Source: an uncultured Gammaproteobacteria bacterium (GTDB lineage: Bacteria; Patescibacteriota; Patescibacteriia; JAHIZJ01). From it: DNA of 64,000 bases. The position numbers were made by a program, and so were the translations under genes. The DNA is taken from the NCBI GenBank assembly GCA_964371245.1, contig CAYJKP010000001.1, positions 53,128 to 117,127 of the forward strand, written 5' to 3'. Numbering within the stretch: the first letter of the stretch is position 1; each line of letters starts with the position of its first letter. Below, one piece after another: positions 7,833 to 64,000 of the stretch. The notes beneath the pieces are model-generated. The model ran no database searches. It worked only from the letters and a program-made list of their open reading frames with translations, and had not been told where the DNA came from.

Positions 7833-9223
7833 AAAAACTTTGGCACCATCTGCCGGCCGTTGGGCTCTACCTCTACGTCTTTCTTTTGCCGTGGCAGACG
7901 CGGCTGATTGTCCGGCAAGGATATCTAAATGGTGGAAATTGGGAATATGGTTCAGCCAGTTTATACGGCACCGAAATTCTCCTGCTGGCGGTGGTCATCG
8001 TCGAGTTGTTTCACCGGCGGAAAAAAGCATCGGCCAAGCGGCTTGGGTATGATATTGCGCTGATTGCTTTCTTGGTGATCGCCGGACTGTCATTTCTCTT
8101 TTCGATAAAACAGGAACTGACCCTGGCAGCGTTGATCAAGCTGCTCGAAGGTATTTGTCTGATTTGGCTCGTTACCCGAATTCCGTTTTCCTGGCGCTGG
8201 CTGGCGCAGTCCTGGGTGGCCGGGGCGCTTGTGCAGGCTGGTTTCGGTATCTGGCAATTCTTTAGCCAGCAGACGATCGTCAATAAATGGCTTGGCTTGG
8301 CCGCTCATGATCCAGCTCAGCTCGGCACGTTTGTGATTGAAACCGGCGGTGAACGGTTTTTGCGGGCCTATGGCGCGCTTCCGCATCCGAATATGCTCGC
8401 CGCCTGGTTGGGGTTGGCGATATTTCTCATTTTTGGTCTGTATTTTGACCTCTATCGGCGGATCTACCACTGGTTTGCCGCACTCCACCCGTCTCAACAA
8501 AAGAAATTCTGGTCGGCGACCGGCAATCAAGCGATCAAATTCTCGCTCGAAATTATCTGGTATCTTGTTTGCCTGGGCGTGTTGACGATTGGCTTACTGC
8601 TGACGTTTTCACGCGGGGCGTGGCTCGCCTGCCTGATCGGTATTGGCGTGATGGCGATTATCACTGTCGTAAAGAATGACGCAAAAAAATTCTTAGCGCT
8701 AGTCAAACTCGTCATTGTCATCGGCGTCGTGGCCGCGGCGACCGTGGCCATTATGCCACAGCCGTTTTTCACGCGCTTCCAGCCCGAGAGCCGGCTTGAA
8801 AAGATTTCGATCGATACGCGGCTGACCTATCAAGACCAAGCCCTGACCCTGCTAAAAAAATATTGGATCGTCGGCACCGGCCTGGGGACGTACACCCAGG
8901 CGGTCCACGACAAAATAGACAACAGTCTCAAGACCTGGGATTACCAGCCGGTGCATAATATCTATTTATTGATCGCCGTCGAGACAAGCGTTATCGGATT
9001 GATTGTTTTCGGCTTTTTACTCTTTGAGGTCTTTCGTGAAACCGTGCGGCGGCTGAAAAAAAGCAAGGTCATTGATCGCTGGCTTGTTGTGATCATCGGA
9101 CAAATCGTGTTTGTGGTCGTGATGGGCTGGGTTGACCATTTTTGGTGGACACTGGCCTTTGGCGTCTGGGCCTGGTGGCTGATCTTCGGTTTGTGGCGGA
9201 GAGAAGTAGCCGTAAAGCAATAA
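7811..9223 (+). CDS. O-antigen ligase (Wzy_C)-like polytopic membrane protein
   Basis: Multi-TM protein with the LLTFSRGAWLACLIG motif typical of the O-antigen ligase / Wzy_C family. Confidence 0.55.
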   Translation: MQGVGRMKKLWHHLPAVGLYLYVFLLPWQTRLIVRQGYLNGGNWEYGSASLYGTEILLLAVVIVELFHRRKKASAKRLGYDIALIAFLVIAGLSFLFSIKQELTLAALIKLLEGICLIWLVTRIPFSWRWLAQSWVAGALVQAGFGIWQFFSQQTIVNKWLGLAAHDPAQLGTFVIETGGERFLRAYGALPHPNMLAAWLGLAIFLIFGLYFDLYRRIYHWFAALHPSQQKKFWSATGNQAIKFSLEIIWYLVCLGVLTIGLLLTFSRGAWLACLIGIGVMAIITVVKNDAKKFLALVKLVIVIGVVAAATVAIMPQPFFTRFQPESRLEKISIDTRLTYQDQALTLLKKYWIVGTGLGTYTQAVHDKIDNSLKTWDYQPVHNIYLLIAVETSVIGLIVFGFLLFEVFRETVRRLKKSKVIDRWLVVIIGQIVFVVVMGWVDHFWWTLAFGVWAWWLIFGLWRREVAVKQ

Positions 9224-9294
9224 TTTTACTGTTCAGCAAATATATCCATATTTAAAGGGCGAGGACGGTCAGCAGGAGAGCGCCTAAAACGAGC

Positions 9295-9327
9295 GGGGAA
9301 GCGGCCTTGACGTGTTCCTTTTTTTTG
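9295..9327 (+). terminator. weak hairpin plus T8 run after the ligase-like gene
   Basis: Short GGAA/TTCC stem followed by TTTTTTTT. The stem is weak. Confidence 0.3.
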
Positions 9328-9346
9328 CTAAAATAAAGAAACGGAA

Positions 9347-9373
9347 TTAGCACTCGAATTTATGGAGTGCTAA
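9347..9373. promoter_or_regulatory. CIRCE operator (HrcA binding site) TTAGCACTC-N9-GAGTGCTAA
   Basis: Exact match to the CIRCE consensus inverted repeat with a 9-nt spacer, 55 nt upstream of groES. Confidence 0.85.
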
Positions 9374-9427
9374 TATTCGAGAAAAATAGGCTAATTTAAG
9401 GTTAATTTATCCACAAAGGAGAAATGT

Positions 9428-9703
9428 ATGAAGCTGAAACCATTAGGCGATCGCGTGATCGTCAAACCTCTCAAAGACGAAGAGGTGACGAAATCCGGCA
9501 TCGTGTTGCCCGACACGGTTGAAAAAGAGAAGAAAGAACAGGGCGAAATCATAAGCATCGGCAACGGCGAGAAGATTGCCAAACTCGGTCTTACGGTCGG
9601 CGATAAGGTCCTCTTCGGAAAGTATTCCGGTGAAGACGTAAAGGTCGGCGAGGTTGAGTACAAGGTACTCAAAGAGGAAGACGTCTTAGCCGTCATGGAA
9701 TAA
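9428..9703 (+). CDS. groES: co-chaperonin GroES
   Basis: 91 aa with MKLKPLGDRVIVKP...GIVLPD...GDKVLF, the canonical Cpn10 sequence. Sits directly upstream of groEL. Confidence 0.92.
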   Translation: MKLKPLGDRVIVKPLKDEEVTKSGIVLPDTVEKEKKEQGEIISIGNGEKIAKLGLTVGDKVLFGKYSGEDVKVGEVEYKVLKEEDVLAVME

Positions 9704-9715
9704 TTCGAATATTAA

Positions 9716-11374
<1,659 letters not shown>

Positions 11375-22090: not shown

Positions 22091-23446
22091 TCAATGTTTC
22101 AAGCAGTCTTTCACCGCCGCGCAGGCCTGCTGGACGTCACGAAGATCGTTGTAAATGTAAAAGCTCAGGCGGCAGCTGGCGGCCGGATCCAACCCGTAAT
22201 AGTGATGTGCCAGTGTGGCGCAGTGACAACCAGCTCGCGATTCCACGCCGCGCCGGCTTAATTCCTCGGCGATCGTAAACGGACTAATCCTATTATCGGT
22301 AAACGATACCAGCGAAGTTCTTTTTGCCGGATCTTTTGGTCCAAAAATGCGCAGCGAAGGTAATTGTTCCAGCAAATTCAAGCCCTCAGTAATCAACATC
22401 GTCTCGTGGTGTTCGACTCGTTTCATTGTTTCTTCAATATCGGCGGGCCGCAGATCCCTACCCGTCATAAAATATTCGGTTTTTCCTGGATGCAGGGCAA
22501 AGTCTAGCAAAAGGCGCAACGCCTGGGCTGAGATGATTGTTCCTAATATATTTGGCGTACCCGCCGTGAACTTCCAGGGCAGAGAGTTATACTCGACTTT
22601 CTCAGGGCTGACCATGCCCAGCGCAATCATGTCGCCGCCATAAAGAAAGGGCCGCATGGCTTTGAGCAGCTCGGTCCGGCCATAGAGCGCGCCGACTCCG
22701 AATGGCGCTAGCATTTTGTGGAAAGACCAAGCCAAAAAATCTGCCTTGAACTGATCAATATCTACAAACATATTTGGCACAAGTTGCGCGCCGTCGACAA
22801 GCAGGTAAGACTTTTTCTCGTCGCTCGGTTGGATATAACCGCTGGCATCGGCAATCTTCCTCACCTCGGCGAGCGGATTTTTCGTACCTAAGAAGTTAGA
22901 AGCGCCTACGCAACAGACTAGTTTCGTGCGAGAATCAACCAATGATTGTAAATGGCCGAGATCGAGTTCGCCTGTCTCTTTATCGAACTTGGCTAAACGG
23001 CACTCTACGCGGACGCCGAATTTCGGCAATATTTCTTTCGCGAGGCCATACCAGGGAACATAATTGGAGTTATGTTCCATAAAGGTTGTTACGATGTTGT
23101 CTCCATCCTTAAATTCCGTCAGTAGCGAATACATGACCGAATTGATGGCCTCGGTCGTATTGCGATAAAGAATGATGTTTTCTCGAGAGGGAGCGCCAAT
23201 AAATTGGGCGATAGTATCATAAGAAGCTTCAAAACTCTCAGTTATCTGCAGGGAGGCCTGGGATTGACCGCGATGCACGTTGTCGTATTGCGAACTCAGC
23301 TTCTTCAGAAGGTCAAACAACTGCTGCGGGGGTTGAGAGCTGGCGGCGTTATTCGTAAGAATTCGACCGGCTTTGATTGCCGGGAAAAATTTACGGATTT
23401 TTTTTGTGTCAATTGTTGTCATTTCGTTACCTGGGAATTGTTGCAT
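22091..23446 (-). CDS. cysteine desulfurase-like class V aminotransferase (SufS/CsdA family)
   Basis: PLP-lysine region SFHKMLAPFGVGALYG. C-terminal RAGCHCA (RSGHHCA-like) active-site Cys motif. Confidence 0.75.
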   Translation of the reverse strand: MQQFPGNEMTTIDTKKIRKFFPAIKAGRILTNNAASSQPPQQLFDLLKKLSSQYDNVHRGQSQASLQITESFEASYDTIAQFIGAPSRENIILYRNTTEAINSVMYSLLTEFKDGDNIVTTFMEHNSNYVPWYGLAKEILPKFGVRVECRLAKFDKETGELDLGHLQSLVDSRTKLVCCVGASNFLGTKNPLAEVRKIADASGYIQPSDEKKSYLLVDGAQLVPNMFVDIDQFKADFLAWSFHKMLAPFGVGALYGRTELLKAMRPFLYGGDMIALGMVSPEKVEYNSLPWKFTAGTPNILGTIISAQALRLLLDFALHPGKTEYFMTGRDLRPADIEETMKRVEHHETMLITEGLNLLEQLPSLRIFGPKDPAKRTSLVSFTDNRISPFTIAEELSRRGVESRAGCHCATLAHHYYGLDPAASCRLSFYIYNDLRDVQQACAAVKDCLKH

Positions 23447-23604: not shown

Positions 23605-24138
23605 TTACTTCAGATGCCGGCGCATCGGATGACACAGTCCGAAGACGGCCAGGGGCAGGCTGTACCAGGCACCATCCCCAGCCCGTGAGAGCAGCCAGAA
23701 CCCGACGAAGCCGAGCGGTACCATGCCGTACCAGAACGATCCATGGCGCTGCCAGTAGCTTATCCGGTACCCTTTTCTTCCGAAGAGCGAATAGGCCACC
23801 AGCGACACCAGTCCGACGAGCCACACGATCACGGCCAGGGCGACCGGCACGTGTGCCAGCGACGAATTCTCCTGGCTATGGAGAACCAGGAACCAGCCCC
23901 AGACGAGCATCCAGCAAGTTATTGCGTCCGTGCTGGTGTCGAGATACTTGCCGAACCTGGTCGCGACTTTGAGCCGGCGCGCCAGCCAGCCGTCGATGAC
24001 GTCCGTCAGGCTGGTGCCGAGAAAGAGCCACCAGGCTTCCGTCCAATCCAGCCGATGCATCGCCGCCACACATAGGGCGGCCATGGCCACACGGCTGAGC
24101 GTAATGGCTGTAACCGCCGATAGTGCAACTGCCCGCAT
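23605..24138 (-). CDS. CDP-alcohol phosphatidyltransferase family protein (GC-rich)
   Basis: Exact D-x2-DG-x2-AR-x8-G-x3-D-x3-D motif (DVIDGWLARRLKVATRFGKYLDTSTD). Polytopic membrane protein. Confidence 0.8.
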   Translation of the reverse strand: MRAVALSAVTAITLSRVAMAALCVAAMHRLDWTEAWWLFLGTSLTDVIDGWLARRLKVATRFGKYLDTSTDAITCWMLVWGWFLVLHSQENSSLAHVPVALAVIVWLVGLVSLVAYSLFGRKGYRISYWQRHGSFWYGMVPLGFVGFWLLSRAGDGAWYSLPLAVFGLCHPMRRHLK

Positions 24139-24264: not shown

Positions 24265-25218
24265 ATGAATTTTATAATAAAAAGAGAGTTTTTTACGAAT
24301 ATTGTGTTCGAGAAAGACATAGAATCAATTCCATGGGAGGGATGTTTGTTGTCGTTAATGGCAGATCCATCTACAATGCGTGATTATGAAATACGTATCA
24401 CCGGAACTGGTGATTATAAACCATTACTATCTGTCGATAAAACAAAACAATTATTAGAAACGTTAGACATAATAGCGTTTCATAGACAATCCTATATTGA
24501 GCTCGGCGACAATTATGCAATCTATAAAGAGGGCTTGGGCAAAACAAGAGGATTTGAATATTATCCATTTGAAGAATTAAATCCCTCAGGTAATTTAGTA
24601 AACGACGGTAGTATACCCGAGATAATTGATTTATCAGGCAAGCTTGTTAAAGAAGAAATTAAGAATGCTTTATGTTGGTATCGTCGTTCATTGTCAGTAA
24701 AATATGCATATGAATCATTGTTTTTTCATATTCTTGCTGTGGAAGCTTTAGCTGGTGATATAAAAATATATCCTAGGTGTTCGGAAAACGAGGAGATGAA
24801 GGAATGTATAAAACACCACTCGGTTAATAAAATACCTGTTACTAATAAGGATAAATTAAAAAATATTCTAGGAGAAGAAAAATACCGTTTGATTTATAAA
24901 AAACAAATTAGAAACAATTTATTTCATGGTAAATATGTTGATGAAAATGAATGCCATTCATTATTAGATGGTTTTTCTTTAAAAATTAGCGAGCATATAA
25001 AAAAAGAGCTAGGGTTAAGCGTTGCATTACAGAAACAACCGCGAAGTAAATATGCTTGGAAACGGCCAGGGAGGGCAATATGTTTATATGACACATTATT
25101 CCCAACTGAGTCTATTCCTAAAGATACTCCGACAATTGTCGAGTTAATAAATGCATATACAAATGGTTTTATTCCATTAGCACCAAAGAATATTCGTTTA
25201 AAAAGTGATGAAAAGTAG
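24265..25218 (+). CDS. AT-rich orphan protein with a candidate HEPN-like Rx4H motif
   Basis: 317-aa ORF whose codons are dominated by AAA, ATA, TTA and AAT, unlike all neighbouring genes. Contains IRNNLFHG (R-x4-H). Confidence 0.55.
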   Translation: MNFIIKREFFTNIVFEKDIESIPWEGCLLSLMADPSTMRDYEIRITGTGDYKPLLSVDKTKQLLETLDIIAFHRQSYIELGDNYAIYKEGLGKTRGFEYYPFEELNPSGNLVNDGSIPEIIDLSGKLVKEEIKNALCWYRRSLSVKYAYESLFFHILAVEALAGDIKIYPRCSENEEMKECIKHHSVNKIPVTNKDKLKNILGEEKYRLIYKKQIRNNLFHGKYVDENECHSLLDGFSLKISEHIKKELGLSVALQKQPRSKYAWKRPGRAICLYDTLFPTESIPKDTPTIVELINAYTNGFIPLAPKNIRLKSDEK

Positions 25219-52255: not shown

Positions 52256-55200
52256 ATGAACTCAGTAAAAAATTCCAGTCAAAAAACCGGGAAATTTTTA
52301 CGCGCCCAGAAAAAAGTAAAAGGTCCGGCGTCGTCTTCTCGAACCTTGCGAAAAACACAGGGTGGATTTGCCCTACTCGGAAAGCAATTTTTACCCATTA
52401 TTATTGTTCTCATTATAGCCGTCCTGGCTGCGGCTGTACTGCTCTATCGCCAGTCCAGCCAGTCAAACTATGCCGGCATTACTCGACCGGAGCTGACCGG
52501 ACAATTCGGATTGAAGGCGGTTAAGACCGATTCGGCCGGGATTGAGCCAACCACTACCTTTTTGTTAAGCTCGAATCGATCACTCTCAGCCGATGTTATC
52601 GAAGAATTGGTTACTTTTTCGCCGGAAGTGAAATATAAAGTCCGCAAACTGAAGGAAGAATCTTCTTTTAACGGTTTTTTGAGCAAAGTATTCGCCCAAG
52701 AGCCCAATACGAACAACACGAATGGGGAATCAGCCGTTAGCTCATATGAATTAAAGCCTGTCACGGCGCTCCACGAAGACACGAACTATCAAGTAACCAT
52801 TGCAAAAACAAAGTACTCGGACCGGGAATATCAGTGGGCTTTTCCGGTAAAGGCAAAGTTCCAGGTTCTGGAATCGCATCCTCGGCACCAGGCGACCTAT
52901 GTGCCGACAAATTCTACCGTTGAGATCACGATGAATCGAGAGAAATTTATCACCCCGGAAAAACATTTCTCACTCTCCCCGAATGTTGAGGGTACGCTCG
53001 AGCAGCACGGCAACCGGCTTGTTTTTTTGAGCAACCAACTGGCTGAAAAAACAGTTTATACCGCAACGCTAAAAAAGGGATTGAAGGTTGAGGGCAGTGA
53101 TGAAGAATTAACGCAAGACTATACCTTCAGTTTTGAGACAAGCGAATCGACGTATTCGTCGGGCCGAGCTCAATTTCGATTTAATTCGGACTTCCTGGAA
53201 TTTCTGCCGGACAAACAACCCTATTTCAGCGTCTACTATTATAATTTTGAACCCAAGGATCTCCAGGCAAATTTATACCGCTTTGATAAAGCCGATCAGT
53301 TTATATCCGCCTACCAAAACAGCCGCAACTGGAATCTCCGCTGGACGCATTTCACCTGGGAGGGAGCGGGCAGCCAATATGAGCCGGATCCCGATCAGCT
53401 GATGCTTACGTTTCCAGTCAATATTGTCCAGGTTGATTATCAGAAATTTTTTGAGGTGCCCCAAAAACTTGACCCGGGCTATTATCTCATCGATCTCCAG
53501 GCGGCTGACCAGCGTCACCAAGTCTGGTTGCAAATCACCCCAGTCTCACATTATTTTTCGGTCACGCACGAAAACAGTCTTGTCTGGCTGGCTGACTTTC
53601 CAAGTAAAGAGCCAACGCAGAATACCCAGATAACCTTTGTTGATCAGGCTGGTGAAGACGTAAAACTTGGCAAAACTGACTCGAATGGCCTGATCCAATT
53701 TGCCACACCAACGAGCCTAACCCAGTCCGTCATCGCTTCCCCGACGCCAAAATTTATCAAAGCCGCAACCGAGGACCAGCCGCTCTATATCCGGGTAAGC
53801 GACAAATACGGCTATCGCTCGACAGCGGCCGAGGGTGATCCGTACTGGGACTACTTGTCACTTGATCGCTATGTCTATCAGATGACGGATACGGTTCGGT
53901 TTTGGGGCGTTGTCCAAGGGCGGACCGAGGACATGCGCGAGAAAAAGGTGACGGCGGCAATTACGAGCGGGTATTATTATTACAATGAAGACGGATCGCA
54001 ATCGGATTTGCCGGTTCTGCAAAGCAAAGAGGTCGTTGTCTCGCCGTTTAACACGATTGAAGGCGATCTCTCGTTTACCGGATTAACGCCTGGAACGTAC
54101 AACGTCATGGTTCGTGACGGCGAGCGAACAATTTCCTCGGCGACCTTTGAAGTCATGACCTATATCAAGCCGGCCTATCAAATCACCGTGACGCCATCGA
54201 AACAGGCTATTTTTGCAGGCGAGCCGATCGACTTCGCGGTCCAGGCGAAGTTCTACGACGGTACGCCGGTACCGAATATCGCGCTGAAATATTACAGCTG
54301 GTGGAACGATGCCGTCCAAGGCGAGCTGAAATTGGACAGCGACGGCGAAGGTACGTTTACGTACACGCCAGCCTATACCGAGAGCGACTATCAATACTAT
54401 CCACGATACTTCGAAATGACGTTTTCGCCGTCCTTGGCTGAGGAAGGGGAGATTTCCGGCGCGGGCGGCGTCCTCGTTTTCGGACCGCATATGTCGCTTG
54501 AAACGAAATCAACCTACACCGGCGATCATAACTATCTCTTTACTGCGAAACTGAATTCGATCGTGTTGAAAGACTTGCCGACCAGTAATAATGGTAATTC
54601 CGATTCGTATTCCTTGTTGTCCGAATACATTGGCGAGCCTGTGCCGGACCACGTTCTTAACGCAAAAGTAGTAAAAACAACCATTCAAAAGATCGAGGAC
54701 GGGACATACTATGACCCGATCAATCGAGTCAACCAGAAGAAATATCGGTATGAATCGAAAGACGATATCATTGAGGAGCTGCAGGGGAAGACTGACGCAA
54801 ACGGCGAGTGGAGTTTTACCAGAGAATATCCCTATCAGGAGCTTGTTGGTTACCGAGTTGAATGTACGGGTCAGGATCAAGAGGGTCGGAACTTCAAATC
54901 CACCCAGTACATGTATTCTGGCGAAGGGTATATTCCGGGCAAGGAATTTAATGCGATACTCAGCCTGAACAACAATAACGGGACGACCCAATATTCAGTC
55001 GACGACCCGGTCAAACCTGAAGTACGCATTACCCTGGGACAATTGCCTGAAAAGTCGAAAATACTTTATTATCGTCGCCAAAACCAGATCGACAAAACCT
55101 GGGTGACGTCGGATCTAACGCTGGAAGAGAATTTTTCCCAGCAGTTTGTTCCCTCTGTTACGTATCGGGCAGTAATGCTCGGTCCGACTGGTTTTGTGGA

Positions 55201-57799
55201 AACGGGTGACGAGACGGCAGCATTTAAGAAAACCGACCGAGCGCTGTCAATAGAAATAAATCCGGATAAAACCGGCTATCGACCGGGTGAAAAAGTTACT
55301 CTGAACGTAGCCGTAACCGATAAAGACAAGAAGCCGGTTGCGGCCCAGGTCAATCTGGCCGCTGTTGACGAGGCGCTCTTCCACGTCGTGCCGTATTCTT
55401 GGCAACCAAAGATTCTCGACAGCCTCTACCGGAACGTAACCGTGTGGCCGCTTTCCGGCGCATCTGATTACGCCTTATTGGAGCAGGGGGCTGAACGCGG
55501 CGGCTGTTTCGGGGCGGATACCGCCATCCTCATGGCTGATAAAAAGACCAAGCCGATCCAAGATATCAAAGTGGGCGATACCGTTCTCGCTTCAGCGGGC
55601 GATGGCACAACTGTCGTGAAACCAGCCGTCGTTCAAGGGACGTCCGTTCACCTGGTGAATACGTTCCTCGTCATTAACGGCTCGCTCGTCGTCACGCCGG
55701 AACACCCACTCTTTGCGAATGATCGCTGGCAGCCGGCTGGAAACCTGAAAACAGGCGATGTCTTATTGGGCAGCGATGGAAAAGCCAAGCCGATTGAGTC
55801 AGTCGTGACGACGACGGATCGCTCAATCCCGGTCTATAATCTCGTTGTCGGCACGTATCATACCTATTTTGCCAATGGCCTCCTGGCTCATAATGCCGAA
55901 AAGGCCGGTGGCCCACGTTCCAACTTTGTCGATGTTGCGCTCTATCAGACCATTGAAACCAACATGAGCGGCCAAGGTTCAGCTACCTTTACCGCACCCG
56001 ACAATCTTACCTCCTGGCGGGTCACTGCCCTGGCGTACGACCCTGATCTGATTCTGGCTGGCCAAACGGCCAAGCTCGTGCCAGTCGCACTGCCGCTGTT
56101 CGTCGACAGTACCTTGAACTCATTCTATCGGACAAATGACAAACCGATTGTTCGAGTACGCGCCTTTGGCAACGATTATCAGGTCGGTCAGGCGACGGAT
56201 TTCGCTCTAACCAGCACCTCGCTCAACCTCAATCTCGCCAAAACCTCGACTGACCGGGAAGTACGTTTTGATCTCGGCGCAATCCCGGCCGGTGACCATG
56301 ATATTACGGTTGGCGTAAAGCAAGGTCAGGCTCAGGATTCCGTAAAACGTCAACTCCAGGTAATCGATAATCACTTCCGGATCGTTCAAGCCAAAGAATA
56401 CGCCGTCACCAATGACCTGAAAGACATCGAAGGGAACACCCAGGCCTACACCCACCTGGTATTTGCCGACGCCGGCCGTGGCAAATATTTTCAGCCACTC
56501 CTTGAGCTCAGTTACGAAACGGGCGTTCGCTCGGATCAAACGGCGGCTGCGTACACGGCGAATGCGTTGCTCGAAAAATATTTCAAATACCCGGCGCCCG
56601 AGCCGCTTGATCTCTCCGGGTTTCAGGTCCAGGATACCGGCGCTTTAGCGCTCTTTCCGTATAGCGATAGCGATTTAGAAGTCTCGGCAAAACTCGCTGA
56701 TTTGGCTCGAGCCAACGTGCCCGAAGCCGAGCTGAACCGGTATTTCACAACCTCTCTCTCGGACGATAAAGCCGATCTCAATCGGATTAGTAAGGCACTC
56801 TATGGCTTGGCGAGTCTGGGCGAGCCGGTTCTCGCGAAGATCCAAACCGTGCTTCAGCAATCAGAGTTATCAGTGGAAGACCGTCTCTATCTGGCCATCG
56901 GTTTGATCAGGCTGGGCGATCAGGAAGGGGCGAGACTCGTGTATCAAGATGCCATTCGAATAAATCTCCGTTTTGAAGGGGGCGAGGCGTGGCTGGAAAG
57001 CGAGAGCGATCTGACGCGTCGAGTAAAACTCACCGGTTTATCGGGCATTCTCGCGGCTGAGTTAAAATTAACGGATGACGCCAACGCACTCTGGAGCTAC
57101 CTGTCTGGTCACTACCCAGAAACCGATCTTGACGGTATCGAGCGCGCCTTGATGATCCGGGCGCTCCTGGTCATGGCCGATCCGTCGGCAGCCAGTTTTA
57201 CCTACGATACCGGTAGCCGAAAGGAAACCGTCAAATTAGAGAACGGCGCTACATACGCGCTTGATTTGGCGGCTGTGGAATTGACTGCTCTCCGTTTCAG
57301 CGATGTCACAGGCAATATCGTGCTGGTCAGCTGGTTTGAGCGGAGTAAGAATCCGGAGGAACTCCCCCGCAACCCCGATCTCGTTTTGACTCGAAAGTAC
57401 CTCGTGAATGATAAGCCGACGACGACGTTTGCTGAGGGGGATATTGTTAAGGTTCGCCTCGATCCGAATATTGGCGCGAACGCCATCGACGGCTTGTACC
57501 AGGTGACGGATTATCTGCCGAGTGGCTTGCGACCAATCACTCAACTGTATAATCGAAATTTATCGTCTGGTACGGAATGCGATCCGATCTGGTACCCGTC
57601 CATGATCATGAACCAGAGCGTGTATTTCACCATCGGAAAGGACTTTGATCGCACCCCTGACTGCACAAACCGAACGCTCAACTATTACGCCCGGGTTGTT
57701 AGCCCCGGCGGATACTCGGCCGAACCGGCAGTCATCCAGTCGCTCAAGAATCTCACGAGCTTAAACTTAACCGACGCACATAATATTACGATTAAGTAG
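52256..57799 (+). CDS. giant alpha-2-macroglobulin-family protein (thioester-less) with embedded Hint domain
   Basis: 1847 aa with an N-terminal TM anchor. RSNFVDVALYQ...TAPDNLTSW matches the A2M-domain start (RxYFPETWxW...VPDxITxW). No CGEQ motif seen. Confidence 0.7.
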   Translation: MNSVKNSSQKTGKFLRAQKKVKGPASSSRTLRKTQGGFALLGKQFLPIIIVLIIAVLAAAVLLYRQSSQSNYAGITRPELTGQFGLKAVKTDSAGIEPTTTFLLSSNRSLSADVIEELVTFSPEVKYKVRKLKEESSFNGFLSKVFAQEPNTNNTNGESAVSSYELKPVTALHEDTNYQVTIAKTKYSDREYQWAFPVKAKFQVLESHPRHQATYVPTNSTVEITMNREKFITPEKHFSLSPNVEGTLEQHGNRLVFLSNQLAEKTVYTATLKKGLKVEGSDEELTQDYTFSFETSESTYSSGRAQFRFNSDFLEFLPDKQPYFSVYYYNFEPKDLQANLYRFDKADQFISAYQNSRNWNLRWTHFTWEGAGSQYEPDPDQLMLTFPVNIVQVDYQKFFEVPQKLDPGYYLIDLQAADQRHQVWLQITPVSHYFSVTHENSLVWLADFPSKEPTQNTQITFVDQAGEDVKLGKTDSNGLIQFATPTSLTQSVIASPTPKFIKAATEDQPLYIRVSDKYGYRSTAAEGDPYWDYLSLDRYVYQMTDTVRFWGVVQGRTEDMREKKVTAAITSGYYYYNEDGSQSDLPVLQSKEVVVSPFNTIEGDLSFTGLTPGTYNVMVRDGERTISSATFEVMTYIKPAYQITVTPSKQAIFAGEPIDFAVQAKFYDGTPVPNIALKYYSWWNDAVQGELKLDSDGEGTFTYTPAYTESDYQYYPRYFEMTFSPSLAEEGEISGAGGVLVFGPHMSLETKSTYTGDHNYLFTAKLNSIVLKDLPTSNNGNSDSYSLLSEYIGEPVPDHVLNAKVVKTTIQKIEDGTYYDPINRVNQKKYRYESKDDIIEELQGKTDANGEWSFTREYPYQELVGYRVECTGQDQEGRNFKSTQYMYSGEGYIPGKEFNAILSLNNNNGTTQYSVDDPVKPEVRITLGQLPEKSKILYYRRQNQIDKTWVTSDLTLEENFSQQFVPSVTYRAVMLGPTGFVETGDETAAFKKTDRALSIEINPDKTGYRPGEKVTLNVAVTDKDKKPVAAQVNLAAVDEALFHVVPYSWQPKILDSLYRNVTVWPLSGASDYALLEQGAERGGCFGADTAILMADKKTKPIQDIKVGDTVLASAGDGTTVVKPAVVQGTSVHLVNTFLVINGSLVVTPEHPLFANDRWQPAGNLKTGDVLLGSDGKAKPIESVVTTTDRSIPVYNLVVGTYHTYFANGLLAHNAEKAGGPRSNFVDVALYQTIETNMSGQGSATFTAPDNLTSWRVTALAYDPDLILAGQTAKLVPVALPLFVDSTLNSFYRTNDKPIVRVRAFGNDYQVGQATDFALTSTSLNLNLAKTSTDREVRFDLGAIPAGDHDITVGVKQGQAQDSVKRQLQVIDNHFRIVQAKEYAVTNDLKDIEGNTQAYTHLVFADAGRGKYFQPLLELSYETGVRSDQTAAAYTANALLEKYFKYPAPEPLDLSGFQVQDTGALALFPYSDSDLEVSAKLADLARANVPEAELNRYFTTSLSDDKADLNRISKALYGLASLGEPVLAKIQTVLQQSELSVEDRLYLAIGLIRLGDQEGARLVYQDAIRINLRFEGGEAWLESESDLTRRVKLTGLSGILAAELKLTDDANALWSYLSGHYPETDLDGIERALMIRALLVMADPSAASFTYDTGSRKETVKLENGATYALDLAAVELTALRFSDVTGNIVLVSWFERSKNPEELPRNPDLVLTRKYLVNDKPTTTFAEGDIVKVRLDPNIGANAIDGLYQVTDYLPSGLRPITQLYNRNLSSGTECDPIWYPSMIMNQSVYFTIGKDFDRTPDCTNRTLNYYARVVSPGGYSAEPAVIQSLKNLTSLNLTDAHNITIK
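55505..55894 (+). other. Hint / bacterial intein-like (BIL) domain inside the A2M-family CDS
   Basis: In-frame 130-aa segment CFGADTAIL...VVTPEHPLF (TxxH block B)...VYNLVVGTYHTYFANGLLAHN (blocks F/G ending His-Asn). The +1 residue is Ala. Confidence 0.7.
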
Positions 57800-62492: not shown

Positions 62493-62646
62493 CGCCTAGC
62501 GCTTGACAGGAAGAGCGAAATCCTATTAGATACAGACGAAAATAGCAGTGTTGCTCGATAGATTCGGGGACGATCTTTGTCATTGTCCATTCACTCACGG
62601 CTTCGGATACCAGCGGGGCGCTACTCAGTCTCGCAGGAGGCAAGTC

Positions 62647-63762
62647 ATGCCAGGTGTCAGAGTGACCGGCTTTGGTTCTTATGTTCCAGAGCGGGTTGTT
62701 AACAACGCGGAGTTTTCAGATTTGATGAATGCAGAACTTCGTCGTCTGGCGGCGGAGGGACGTATCAATCAAGCGGATCTCGAAGGACTACTGTGTAAGC
62801 CGGACTGGATCGTTGAGCGGACCGGCGTTGAAGAACGCCATCTGGCTGCGCCCGATCAGGCCACAAGCGATCTGGCGGTACCGGCGATCAAGTGTTGCCT
62901 CGGCTGGTCGGGATACCAGCCGATGGATCGGAGCGCACTTGTTGTCGGCACGGTCATGGGTGACGAACCGACCACTCCGACGACGGCAGCGAGAATTCAG
63001 CACAAACTGGGCTGGCCGGTTCGCCATGACGACGGTCGGCTGGTTGACCGCATGATGTACGATACGAGCGCGGCGTGCACAAGCTTTGGCATGGCCCTAG
63101 CGCAACTCGAAGCGCTGATCCGCTCGGGCAACCGAACGGGCGGCGTCGCTGTCGGCGTTGACGTGATGTCGCGGCTGAGGAATCCTTTGCGACGCGGGAT
63201 CGCTCCGCTCTTGGCTGACGCGGGTTTTGCCGTGAGTCTGGAAGCGACCGACGATCCAGCACTGGACTGTTTCCTGCCCGACGGCCAGAGTTTCTTCTTC
63301 GGCGGCGACGGCCAATATGCCGAGGAGATCATCGTTCGAGCTGGTGGCACGAGACAACCGGTTACTCCCGAGATGCTGGCCGACCCGCTGTGCTGGGATA
63401 CCGGCATCTATATGAACGGCAACTCGGTGTTCAGGCTGATCGTCAACCTGGTCAAGAACGAGATCATCCATCAGGCGCTCGCGAAGGCCGGGCTGACCCT
63501 GGCTGACATCGGGCAGTTTATCTTCCACCAGGCGAATCTCCGCATGATTACGCCAATTACGGACAAACTGAAGATCACGCAACGGACCTACAACAACGTC
63601 CAGCGGTATGGGAATACCACATCTGCGTCCGTTGGTCTCTGCTTGGACGAGGCGTATGCGGCTGGCCGGCTGCAACCGGGCATGAATGTCATGATCGTCG
63701 TCTTCGGCGGCGGGTTCACCTGGGGGACGATCATCCTGAAGTGGCCGGAGCTGAGGGTATAG
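62647..63762 (+). CDS. FabH-like 3-oxoacyl-ACP synthase III (KAS III) family, GC-rich
   Basis: AGGAGG RBS 7 nt upstream. Catalytic Cys (AACTSF), His (HQANLRM) and Asn (YGNTTSASV). Confidence 0.75.
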   Translation: MPGVRVTGFGSYVPERVVNNAEFSDLMNAELRRLAAEGRINQADLEGLLCKPDWIVERTGVEERHLAAPDQATSDLAVPAIKCCLGWSGYQPMDRSALVVGTVMGDEPTTPTTAARIQHKLGWPVRHDDGRLVDRMMYDTSAACTSFGMALAQLEALIRSGNRTGGVAVGVDVMSRLRNPLRRGIAPLLADAGFAVSLEATDDPALDCFLPDGQSFFFGGDGQYAEEIIVRAGGTRQPVTPEMLADPLCWDTGIYMNGNSVFRLIVNLVKNEIIHQALAKAGLTLADIGQFIFHQANLRMITPITDKLKITQRTYNNVQRYGNTTSASVGLCLDEAYAAGRLQPGMNVMIVVFGGGFTWGTIILKWPELRV

Positions 63763-63888
63763 CTGTTGAATCGCACAACCAACGAGGGGTTTGCGGGAGA
63801 GTCTTCGGACGGCTCCCTTTTTTCTTGCCAAACGCCAGGTACTTTGGTATGATGCGGGCAAGAGTAATTATCCATAATTTTTTTTACC

Positions 63889-64000
63889 ATGAAAATACAA
63901 GTTCAACGTGACCTGTGCATCAGCGCCGCTTCATGCGTAGCGGTGGCGCCAGGGGTATTTCAGCTCGATACCGAGGGTAAGGTGTACGTTGTTGATCCAA
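63889..64000 (+). CDS. ferredoxin-like protein, partial (runs off window end)
   Basis: MKIQVQRDLCISAASCVAVAPGVFQLDTEGKVYVVDP resembles small single-cluster ferredoxins (DLCIGxGxCxxxAPxVFxxDDDG). Confidence 0.45.
   Translation, partial: MKIQVQRDLCISAASCVAVAPGVFQLDTEGKVYVVDP

Follow-up and report, generated by a model that had tools for sequence, protein, structure and literature searches.

A divergent, recombining KAS III-fold enzyme gene of a Patescibacteria bacterium that probably acts outside classical fatty-acid synthesis

We analyzed a 64,000-nt stretch of contig CAYJKP010000001.1 (the window), the final 1.4 kb of which holds a complete gene for a β-ketoacyl-ACP synthase III (KAS III; FabH-like) protein and the 5' end of a ferredoxin gene. 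We consider it reasonably probable that the product of the KAS III gene, which is monocistronic, is a functional enzyme with the KAS III (FabH) fold, that it belongs to a small divergent subfamily known to date from Patescibacteria (the candidate phyla radiation, CPR), that its gene keeps a fixed locus in at least four related lineages while recombining, and that the enzyme acts outside classical type II fatty-acid synthesis (FAS II). The KAS III subfamily that it represents is rare, carries inserts, stands alone in the genome and has been seen in Patescibacteria; the kind of enzyme is itself already known. A 1.05-kb tract internal to its coding sequence (CDS) has been exchanged between related Patescibacteria lineages by recombination. 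As for the host, its GroEL (window 9731-11371) places it in the Patescibacteria (CPR): the nearest relatives are exclusively Patescibacteria, and the named matches, at ~73% identity, are Kerfeld-, Komeili-, Falkow- and Kuenenbacteria.

The enzyme and its subfamily

The gene and its principal sites are as follows.

62647-63762, + strand: KAS III-fold (FabH-like) condensing enzyme of 371 aa, a single open reading frame (ORF) assigned by Pfam, Protein Data Bank (PDB) matches and a structural model
62635-62640, + strand: Shine-Dalgarno sequence AGGAGG, 6 nt 5' of the ATG, invariant across four lineages
62974-62976, + strand: Thr110, which aligns with Phe87 of E. coli FabH
63076-63078, + strand: catalytic Cys144, triad member
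63526-63528, + strand: catalytic His294, triad member
63613-63615, + strand: catalytic Asn323, triad member

A first-pass annotation, made from the letters alone, had described a KAS III-family enzyme with an intact Cys-His-Asn triad and a strong ribosome-binding site, and both points were confirmed: AGGAGG stands at the spacing given above, and Cys144, His294 and Asn323 are in register with the FabH triad and invariant in alignments of 12 and of 29 sequences. Both Pfam domains exceed their gathering scores, ACP_syn_III (PF08545) with E 1.2e-11 and 44.8 bits against a cut-off of 24, and ACP_syn_III_C (PF08541) with E 1.2e-27 and 96.3 bits against 26.6, which assigns the protein to the KAS III/FabH-like branch of the thiolase superfamily. 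The nearest solved relatives by sequence are genuine FabHs, first that of Thermus thermophilus (1ub7, E 1.8e-43) and then those of B. xenovorans, S. aureus and E. coli, and the PDB sequence matches are FabH-class throughout. The AlphaFold model, built on 12 relatives (pLDDT 87.8, pTM 0.88), has the thiolase α-β-α-β-α fold and matches FabH structures with TM scores of 0.87-0.91 (normalised to the target) and a Foldseek E of 1e-32, the top matches being FabH of B. subtilis, T. thermophilus, P. aeruginosa and E. coli. The residues that contact coenzyme A (CoA), Trp54, Arg58 and Arg176 (FabH Trp32, Arg36 and Arg151), are present, as is a conserved Arg299, the equivalent of the Arg249 with which the E. 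coli enzyme docks the acyl carrier protein (ACP); the GDGAGA motif of FabH reads ADAGFA. The Chal_sti_synt_N/C domains of type III polyketide synthases (PKS) and chalcone synthases had no match at E <= 0.01, and the NCBIfam models of DarB, StlD, DpgA, AmcF and HMG-CoA synthase scored 16-40 bits against cut-offs of 244-550.

The protein differs from canonical FabHs as follows. First, it belongs to a tight group. A search of 5.8 billion proteins returned about 12 sequences with 43-100% identity to it, below which identity fell sharply, among the matches listed, to canonical FabHs of many phyla at no more than 38%. Two group members are named, a Patescibacteria group bacterium (72%), whose protein NCBI labels merely 'C-terminal domain-containing protein', and Ca. 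Nomurabacteria (52%). Second, in a profile search run exhaustively over 1.84 billion cluster representatives, some 30-35 clusters (at 50% identity) aligned in one stretch from the N-terminus through an insert; these subfamily proteins are 360-460 aa long versus ~325 aa for canonical FabHs, which align with the subfamily profile only from about residue 45, or in two pieces, because the subfamily carries the N-terminal insert. This insert varies in length across the subfamily (25 aa here, at about residues 24-50) and is predicted to form a helical hairpin at residues 20-48 (pLDDT 86-88), directly before the Trp54/Arg58 helix at the substrate entrance, the equivalent of which contacts CoA in FabH. 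A second insert, of 8-10 residues, precedes the catalytic cysteine. Third, the gatekeeper loop is one residue longer, (S/T)-P-P-T versus (F/M/V)-P-S-T, and the gatekeeper itself is Thr or Ser across the subfamily versus the bulky Phe87 of E. coli FabH. At last, both curated FabH thresholds are missed, PRK09352 (NF006829) at 234.3 against 249 and TIGR00747 at 186 against 292.1.

In a neighbour-joining tree with 200 bootstraps, the core clade was recovered in 194. A scan of genome contigs with the KAS III protein alone found no relatives, and a scan with the clade alignment returned, among the matches listed, mostly canonical FabH at 30-36% identity. The viral contig search gave a single match at 25% identity and hence no sign of phage carriage. 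In the literature searched, we found no paper that combines FabH with Patescibacteria or CPR names.

Allele replacement at a shared locus

Three other lineages (L007, L011 and L012) carry the locus in the order seen here, namely DSP phosphatase, pseudouridine synthase, rhomboid, KAS III, ferredoxin and NifU, with KAS III proteins 72%, 85% and 73% identical to the window allele, respectively. Given this common locus, the KAS III gene predates the split of the four lineages. The first-pass annotation had proposed a recent foreign acquisition and had named sharing of the gene by relatives as evidence to the contrary; since related lineages do share it at the same locus, recent acquisition is refuted on those terms.

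In the sister genome L007, GroEL is 99% identical to the one here and the neighbouring proteins range over 77-100% identity, 13 of the 15 reaching at least 86%; KAS III, at 72%, is the least conserved of the 16 proteins compared. Per 100 nt, nucleotide identity to L007 is 0.77-0.97 in the flanks, 0.96-0.97 in the spacers on either side and 0.60-0.81 inside the CDS, where a two-breakpoint likelihood scan delimited the following tract.

62656-63701, + strand: divergence island inside the KAS III CDS, 30.8% divergent from L007 versus 9.6% outside

Both breakpoints lie within the CDS, and the last 55 nt before 63753 are identical to L007. Divergence at nonsynonymous and synonymous sites (dN and dS) is 0.218 and 1.21 for KAS III, with dS of 0.14-0.75 in 14 of the 15 other genes. 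The comparison of this genome (L001) with L011 is reversed, in that KAS III is less diverged (dS 0.68) and the flanking ferredoxin and NifU genes are saturated. The gene tree joins the window allele with that of L011 (P0001+P0002) in 193 of 200 bootstraps and with that of L007 (P0001+P0004) in 1 of 200, opposite to the flanks. The gene thus has all the marks of a mosaic gene, and its sharp breakpoints, raised dS and conflict between tree and flanks point to allele replacement by homologous recombination among relatives, the exchanged tract being the 1.05 kb listed above. What stands of the proposed foreign acquisition is that the gene has a history different from that of its flanks; it was, however, swapped between related strains and not imported from a distant high-GC donor. 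The locus is a clean case of gene-sized recombination between close CPR populations, and bears on how reduced genomes diversify.

That the divergence reflects relaxed constraint or decay of a dispensable gene instead of recombination is highly improbable. Such decay would account for the lowest conservation among the 16 proteins (72% versus 77-100%) and for the altered GDGAGA motif, but it is at odds with an intact ORF, with catalytic residues invariant in all lineages, and with a dN/dS of 0.11-0.18 in all six pairwise comparisons, which indicates purifying selection. Moreover, dS is raised about three-fold too, with sharp breakpoints, KAS III has diverged less than the genes around it between L001 and L011, and the gene tree conflicts with the flanks (193/200 versus 1/200). 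A pseudogene or a gene under relaxed selection was accordingly ruled out by the dN/dS and dS pattern.

A second divergence island lies about 4 kb downstream of KAS III, past the window end. It is a 270-aa gene (L001:14819-15631, equal to window 67465-68277) with ~30% nucleotide divergence from the sister, dS 1.17 and 77% aa identity in surroundings of ~90% or more, and it has no Pfam match.

As for composition, the first-pass annotation had called the last 1.5 kb clearly GC-richer than the rest. The KAS III gene does have 59.2% GC against a gene mean of 51.9 ± 5.3% (1.4 standard deviations above; rank 5 among the 51 ORFs that reach 150 aa in the window and its 10-kb continuation), and it stands 7-9 points above its surroundings. 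The statement was nevertheless too broad: the last 1-kb bin (57.7%; window mean 50.7%) has counterparts at 1-2 kb (56.0%) and 15-16 kb (57.6%), and the ferredoxin gene has 52.3% GC, so that the signal belongs to one gene and not to a 1.5-kb block or a gene pair. GC at the third codon position is 69% (rank 6/51), and that at the first and second positions is likewise raised. The suggested profile of GC and codon usage along the contig bore out a moderate excess of GC, but codon usage is ordinary, with a distance of 0.176 versus a mean of 0.164 ± 0.060 (rank 17/51). Since each of the nine lineages compared has a KAS III homologue that exceeds its surroundings in GC, by 4.4 to 15.7 points, the excess is a trait of the subfamily rather than a mark of recent import. 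It probably stems in part from amino-acid composition and possibly from movement out of GC-richer into GC-poorer relatives. The moderate GC excess of one gene is weak evidence of foreign origin.

A 317-aa ORF at window 24265-25218 (+ strand), with 32% GC, 24% GC at the third position and no Pfam match, is by far the top outlier in codon usage and composition (rank 1/51), and a recent foreign origin is more plausible for it than for the KAS III gene.

The contig was also found to be sound in a check for chimerism. Independent assemblies provide 22 contigs, the longest of 1.18 Mb, that encode an identical KAS III protein, and four of them (L002, L003, L005 and L006) match the window base for base across both gene junctions, which excludes a chimeric contig in practice. 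An apparent 227-nt deletion in the rhomboid-KAS III spacer of a low-coverage assembly (L004:2575-2585) was rejected as an artefact, being a run of 10 N that marks a scaffold gap.

Transcription units and gene neighbourhood

The following elements surround the KAS III gene.

62503-62532, + strand: putative KAS III promoter, TTGACA (62503-62508), 17 nt, -10-like TTAGAT(A), recognized by conservation
62533-62634, + strand: conserved 5' leader of ~100 nt with a small hairpin, kept in four lineages
63796-63827, + strand: intrinsic-terminator-like GC-rich hairpin (GGGAGAGTCTTCGGACGGCTCCC; stem 63799-63815) followed by TTTTTTCTT, core kept in four lineages
63825-63853, + strand: sigma-70-type promoter of the ferredoxin-NifU unit, TTGCCA, 17 nt, TG-TATGAT, 10 of 12 matches
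63889-64000, + strand: 5' part of the gene for a 73-aa mono-cluster ferredoxin (Fer4_15/13/19), its full length taken from the same genome in another assembly

Upstream of KAS III, the TTGACA and TTAGAT(A) blocks are invariant in the four syntenic lineages while the spacer around them varies; the consensus scanner missed this promoter because its -10 element is weak. The leader holds an invariant block, GGACGATCTTTGT, at 62568-62580, and a second leader helix could pair with part of the Shine-Dalgarno sequence. As a structured RNA, the leader was rejected: it has no Rfam match, a folding z of -0.48 versus shuffles and one compensatory pair in four sequences.

Downstream, the terminator hairpin and the TTGCCA-17-TG-TATGAT promoter are both conserved in the syntenic lineages, and their position between the genes implies that KAS III is not co-transcribed with ferredoxin-NifU. 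Read from these sequence signals, the two are separate transcription units and KAS III is monocistronic. The small ferredoxin-like ORF that the first-pass annotation saw leaving the window is real, and its full 73 aa carry the Fer4 domains and the ligand motif of a 3Fe-4S variant. The cluster cysteines are C10-x5-C16 ... C52-P, with Ala at the second Cys of CxxCxxC, and the cluster is likely [3Fe-4S] because three ligands remain. Beyond the window, an 84-aa NifU-like gene follows 32 nt after the ferredoxin gene. The ferredoxin is 100% identical between the sister genomes, where KAS III is 72%, and the ferredoxin-NifU unit looks like Fe-S housekeeping.

Elsewhere in the window, a CDP-alcohol phosphatidyltransferase gene with 62% GC (23608-24138, - strand) adjoins a class-V aminotransferase/cysteine desulfurase gene (22094-23446, - strand). 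The former implies that the organism assembles phospholipid head groups, and the latter fits the reading of the ferredoxin-NifU unit as Fe-S housekeeping.

In Ca. Nomurabacteria and four other lineages, the homologue is usually a solo gene among unrelated genes (ComEC, Y1 transposase, aldehyde dehydrogenase, ABC exporter genes, Mur ligase, HU and thioredoxin reductase among them) without a ferredoxin. Since these distant homologues have other neighbours, the adjacency of KAS III and ferredoxin is a local accident of gene order, and it carried no functional meaning here. The FabH-ferredoxin pairing that had been taken to prime a specialised lipid or polyketide therefore dissolves, with a terminator and a promoter between the two genes and other neighbours in five lineages. 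Inspection of the genes beyond the window end, which the first-pass annotation had asked for, gave the NifU-like gene and no PKS, ACP or lipid-tailoring gene nearby.

Some neighbours of the distant homologues touch on lipids or mobility. The homologue of Ca. Nomurabacteria (CP060223.1) is preceded at a distance of 8.5-10 kb by three tandem PlsC-like (PF01553) acyltransferases and directly by an IS200/IS605 Y1 transposase (these genes occupy L009:1-1434 and 9197-9676), and in L097 a PF01553 PlsC-like acyltransferase lies 0.8 kb upstream (L097:8333-9160); the acyltransferases give a weak hint of a lipid-remodelling context. No homologue but that of Nomurabacteria has a Y1 transposase beside it.

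The window further encodes TruD, UvrA, a Wzy-like ligase, GroEL, PPDK, a two-component system, cysteine desulfurase, rubrerythrin, deoxyhypusine synthase, a primase, sigma-70, a large subtilase and an A2M-like protein with a Hint domain, a content typical of a reduced CPR genome. Among the ORFs scanned in the 64-kb window, there was no fatty-acid or polyketide gene. Within ±10 kb of KAS III in nine lineages, PP-binding, ketoacyl-synt, Acyl_transf_1, FabA and adh_short domains were all absent, as they were from the ORFs scanned in the window, and so were acpP, fabD, fabG, fabF and plsX, the latter five also from the scanned ORFs of the window and its 10-kb extension. Likewise, no ACP, fab, PKS or acetyl-CoA carboxylase gene was found in 74 kb of this genome or within ±10 kb in eight other lineages. 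A search for ACP-like ORFs of at least 45 aa in ~190 kb of loci, with E. coli and B. subtilis ACP queries, gave only noise (E >= 0.88). The KAS III neighbourhood contained no mevalonate-pathway or biotin gene and no tRNA, and the flanks in this genome no integrase, transposase or repeat.

These data bear on the reading of KAS III and ferredoxin as a recently acquired high-GC cassette from outside the lineage that primes a specialised lipid or polyketide, which we regard as very unlikely. It could draw on the GC offset of 7-9 points, on the adjoining ferredoxin and on the high-GC Gaiellaceae among the non-clade matches listed (36%), but the ferredoxin is not GC-rich and sits behind a terminator with its own promoter, five lineages further away lack the adjacency, the same locus recurs in four lineages, and codon usage is typical (rank 17/51). 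Nor do the surroundings fit, with PKS, ACP and tailoring genes absent nearby and no integrase, tRNA or repeat flanking the gene in this genome. The suggested best-hit taxonomy and phylogeny of KAS III instead led to the named clade members, Patescibacteria and Ca. Nomurabacteria. The non-clade homologues listed are at most 38% identical and scattered over many phyla (the best genomic matches listed, at 36%, include Gaiellaceae, Bordetella, Limnohabitans, Planctomycetes and others), and with canonical FabHs this distant no high-GC donor is visible.

Three other genes of this genome are mentioned here for their own sake. An alpha-2-macroglobulin-like protein of 1847 aa (window 52256-57799, + strand) also matches Hint/PT-HINT/Vint (intein-like) and is kept in the sister genome. 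An MGS/AICARFT (purH-like) gene encodes 204 aa here (L001:12657-13271) versus 535 aa in the sister (L007:12684-14291), and the adjoining PEP-utilizers gene ranges from 427 to 491 aa between assemblies; truncation or strain-level frameshifts are possible causes of these length differences.

Probable function and comparison with known systems

By analogy with FabH, acyl-CoA-primed condensation is the likely function. Following the established FabH mechanism, an acyl-CoA primer would be transferred onto Cys144; with the help of His294 and Asn323, a malonyl thioester would then lose its carboxyl group and undergo Claisen condensation with the primer, yielding a 3-oxoacyl product. The primer would probably be larger than acetyl, as in Mycobacterium tuberculosis FabH, because the gatekeeper Thr110 is small: E. 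coli FabH is limited to acetyl-CoA by Phe87, and Thr at position 87 in M. tuberculosis FabH opens the channel for primers of the size of lauroyl-CoA (PMC3734052, PMC12625853). Thr110 would thus argue against strict acetyl specificity. The enzyme probably acts outside classical FAS II, perhaps on acyl chains that the cell scavenges or in making a small β-keto metabolite, because fatty-acid synthesis is reported to be missing in CPR bacteria (PMC10221324, PMC4736985) and the surroundings of the gene hold no ACP or fab gene in any of the lineages. In this respect, the first-pass annotation, which had placed the enzyme apart from housekeeping fatty-acid synthesis, was probably right.

Is the protein nevertheless a vertically inherited housekeeping FabH, starting a normal FAS II that is encoded elsewhere on the chromosome? 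We think this unlikely, although it has these points on its side: the nearest relatives in sequence and structure are genuine FabHs, the triad, Trp54/Arg58 and the Arg249 equivalent are conserved, and the PRK09352 score falls merely 15 bits short of its cut-off. However, both curated cut-offs are missed, the insertions and the Thr/Ser gatekeeper are unlike canonical FabH, and the gene never stands beside plsX, fabD, fabG, acpP or fabF in nine lineages of a radiation reported to be without fatty-acid synthesis. It is also the fastest-diverging of the 16 genes of the syntenic block and is exchanged between strains, which is unusual for a core enzyme, and the family is rare (~30-35 clusters among 1.8 billion representatives) even though Patescibacteria genomes are very numerous. 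KAS III is probably not a housekeeping FabH.

Another possibility is that the KAS III fold serves a known reaction other than fatty-acid synthesis, as in an NphT7-like acetoacetyl-CoA synthase for mevalonate or a condensing enzyme or acyltransferase like PqsD, BioZ or DarB. This is improbable in our judgement. Mevalonate-pathway genes are reported in some CPR bacteria, and similarity to PqsD, BioZ and ZhuH can be detected (E 1e-25 to 1e-26), but these three are more distant than genuine FabHs, the DarB, StlD, DpgA, AmcF and HMG-CoA synthase models score far under their cut-offs, no mevalonate or biotin gene lies in the neighbourhood, and a supply of malonyl-CoA by acetyl-CoA carboxylase is not evident in the 74 kb covered.

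Several points weigh against the reading that we prefer, a functional, divergent KAS III of Patescibacteria acting outside FAS II. The wider 12-member clade is weakly supported (60/200) in a neighbour-joining tree of ~325 columns without an outgroup, and the restriction of the subfamily to CPR, which rests on two named members, is provisional. The putative upstream promoter is read from conservation, and the biochemical role from the FabH mechanism. The survey for FAS II spans 74 kb of a ~1.18-Mb genome, the conserved ACP-docking Arg299 would suit an ordinary ACP-dependent FabH, and primer size depends on several features besides the Thr/Ser gatekeeper.

A more speculative extension, which we hold doubtful, is that this KAS III, with its N-terminal helical insert and open gatekeeper, would represent a previously undescribed, lineage-restricted subfamily in bacteria held to be incapable of making fatty acids, and might act on host-derived long-chain acyl thioesters without FAS II, for example by lengthening scavenged chains or turning them into a 3-oxoacyl lipid or signal molecule, its alleles being shuffled via the host interface with lipid supply driving diversifying exchange. 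For CPR/Patescibacteria, which have been described as lipid auxotrophs, a conserved stand-alone condensing enzyme under selection is a concrete candidate for a part in building or remodelling membranes, and one that can be cloned; its open gatekeeper and the additional helical hairpin where the substrate enters suggest hypotheses that can be put to the test.

Among known systems, the protein is most like bacterial FabH (1ub7; E. coli 1hn9/1ebl; B. subtilis FabHB 8vdb), with which it shares both Pfam domains, the fold (TM 0.87-0.91), the triad, the HQANxR and GNT(S/T)SAS motifs, the FGGGFTWG oxyanion loop and the equivalents of Trp32, Arg36, Arg151 and Arg249. It differs from FabH in its identity of 28-38%, in scoring below the NCBIfam cut-offs, in the ~25-aa and 8-10-aa inserts, in Thr/Ser for Phe87 and ADAGFA for GDGAGA, and in being a solo gene away from fab clusters in a phylum reported without FAS II. 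The downstream ferredoxin aligns end to end with ferredoxin I of D. africanus (1fxr, its best solved relative, E 2e-12), including the C-x5-C ... C-P pattern, and is also akin to Thermotoga and Pyrococcus ferredoxins and to the mycobacterial 3Fe-4S ferredoxin 8amp; it differs in having Ala for the second Cys of CxxCxxC, and it is paired with a NifU-like gene and not with KAS III.

PqsD (3h76), BioZ (6kue/9j6e), ZhuH (1mzj), DarB/StlD and NphT7 condense unusual acyl-CoA primers, either as stand-alone enzymes or within a specific pathway. They have the same fold and triad as the protein described here, but the similarity is weaker than to FabH (E 1e-25 or worse) and none of their pathway partners lies nearby. 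M. tuberculosis FabH (1hzp), which is primed by long-chain acyl-CoA and feeds a complete FAS II/AcpM system, is ~25% identical (E 7e-19), more distant than the short-chain FabHs, and is without the N-terminal insert; nevertheless, it has the same fold (Foldseek rank 48) and shares the small Thr gatekeeper.

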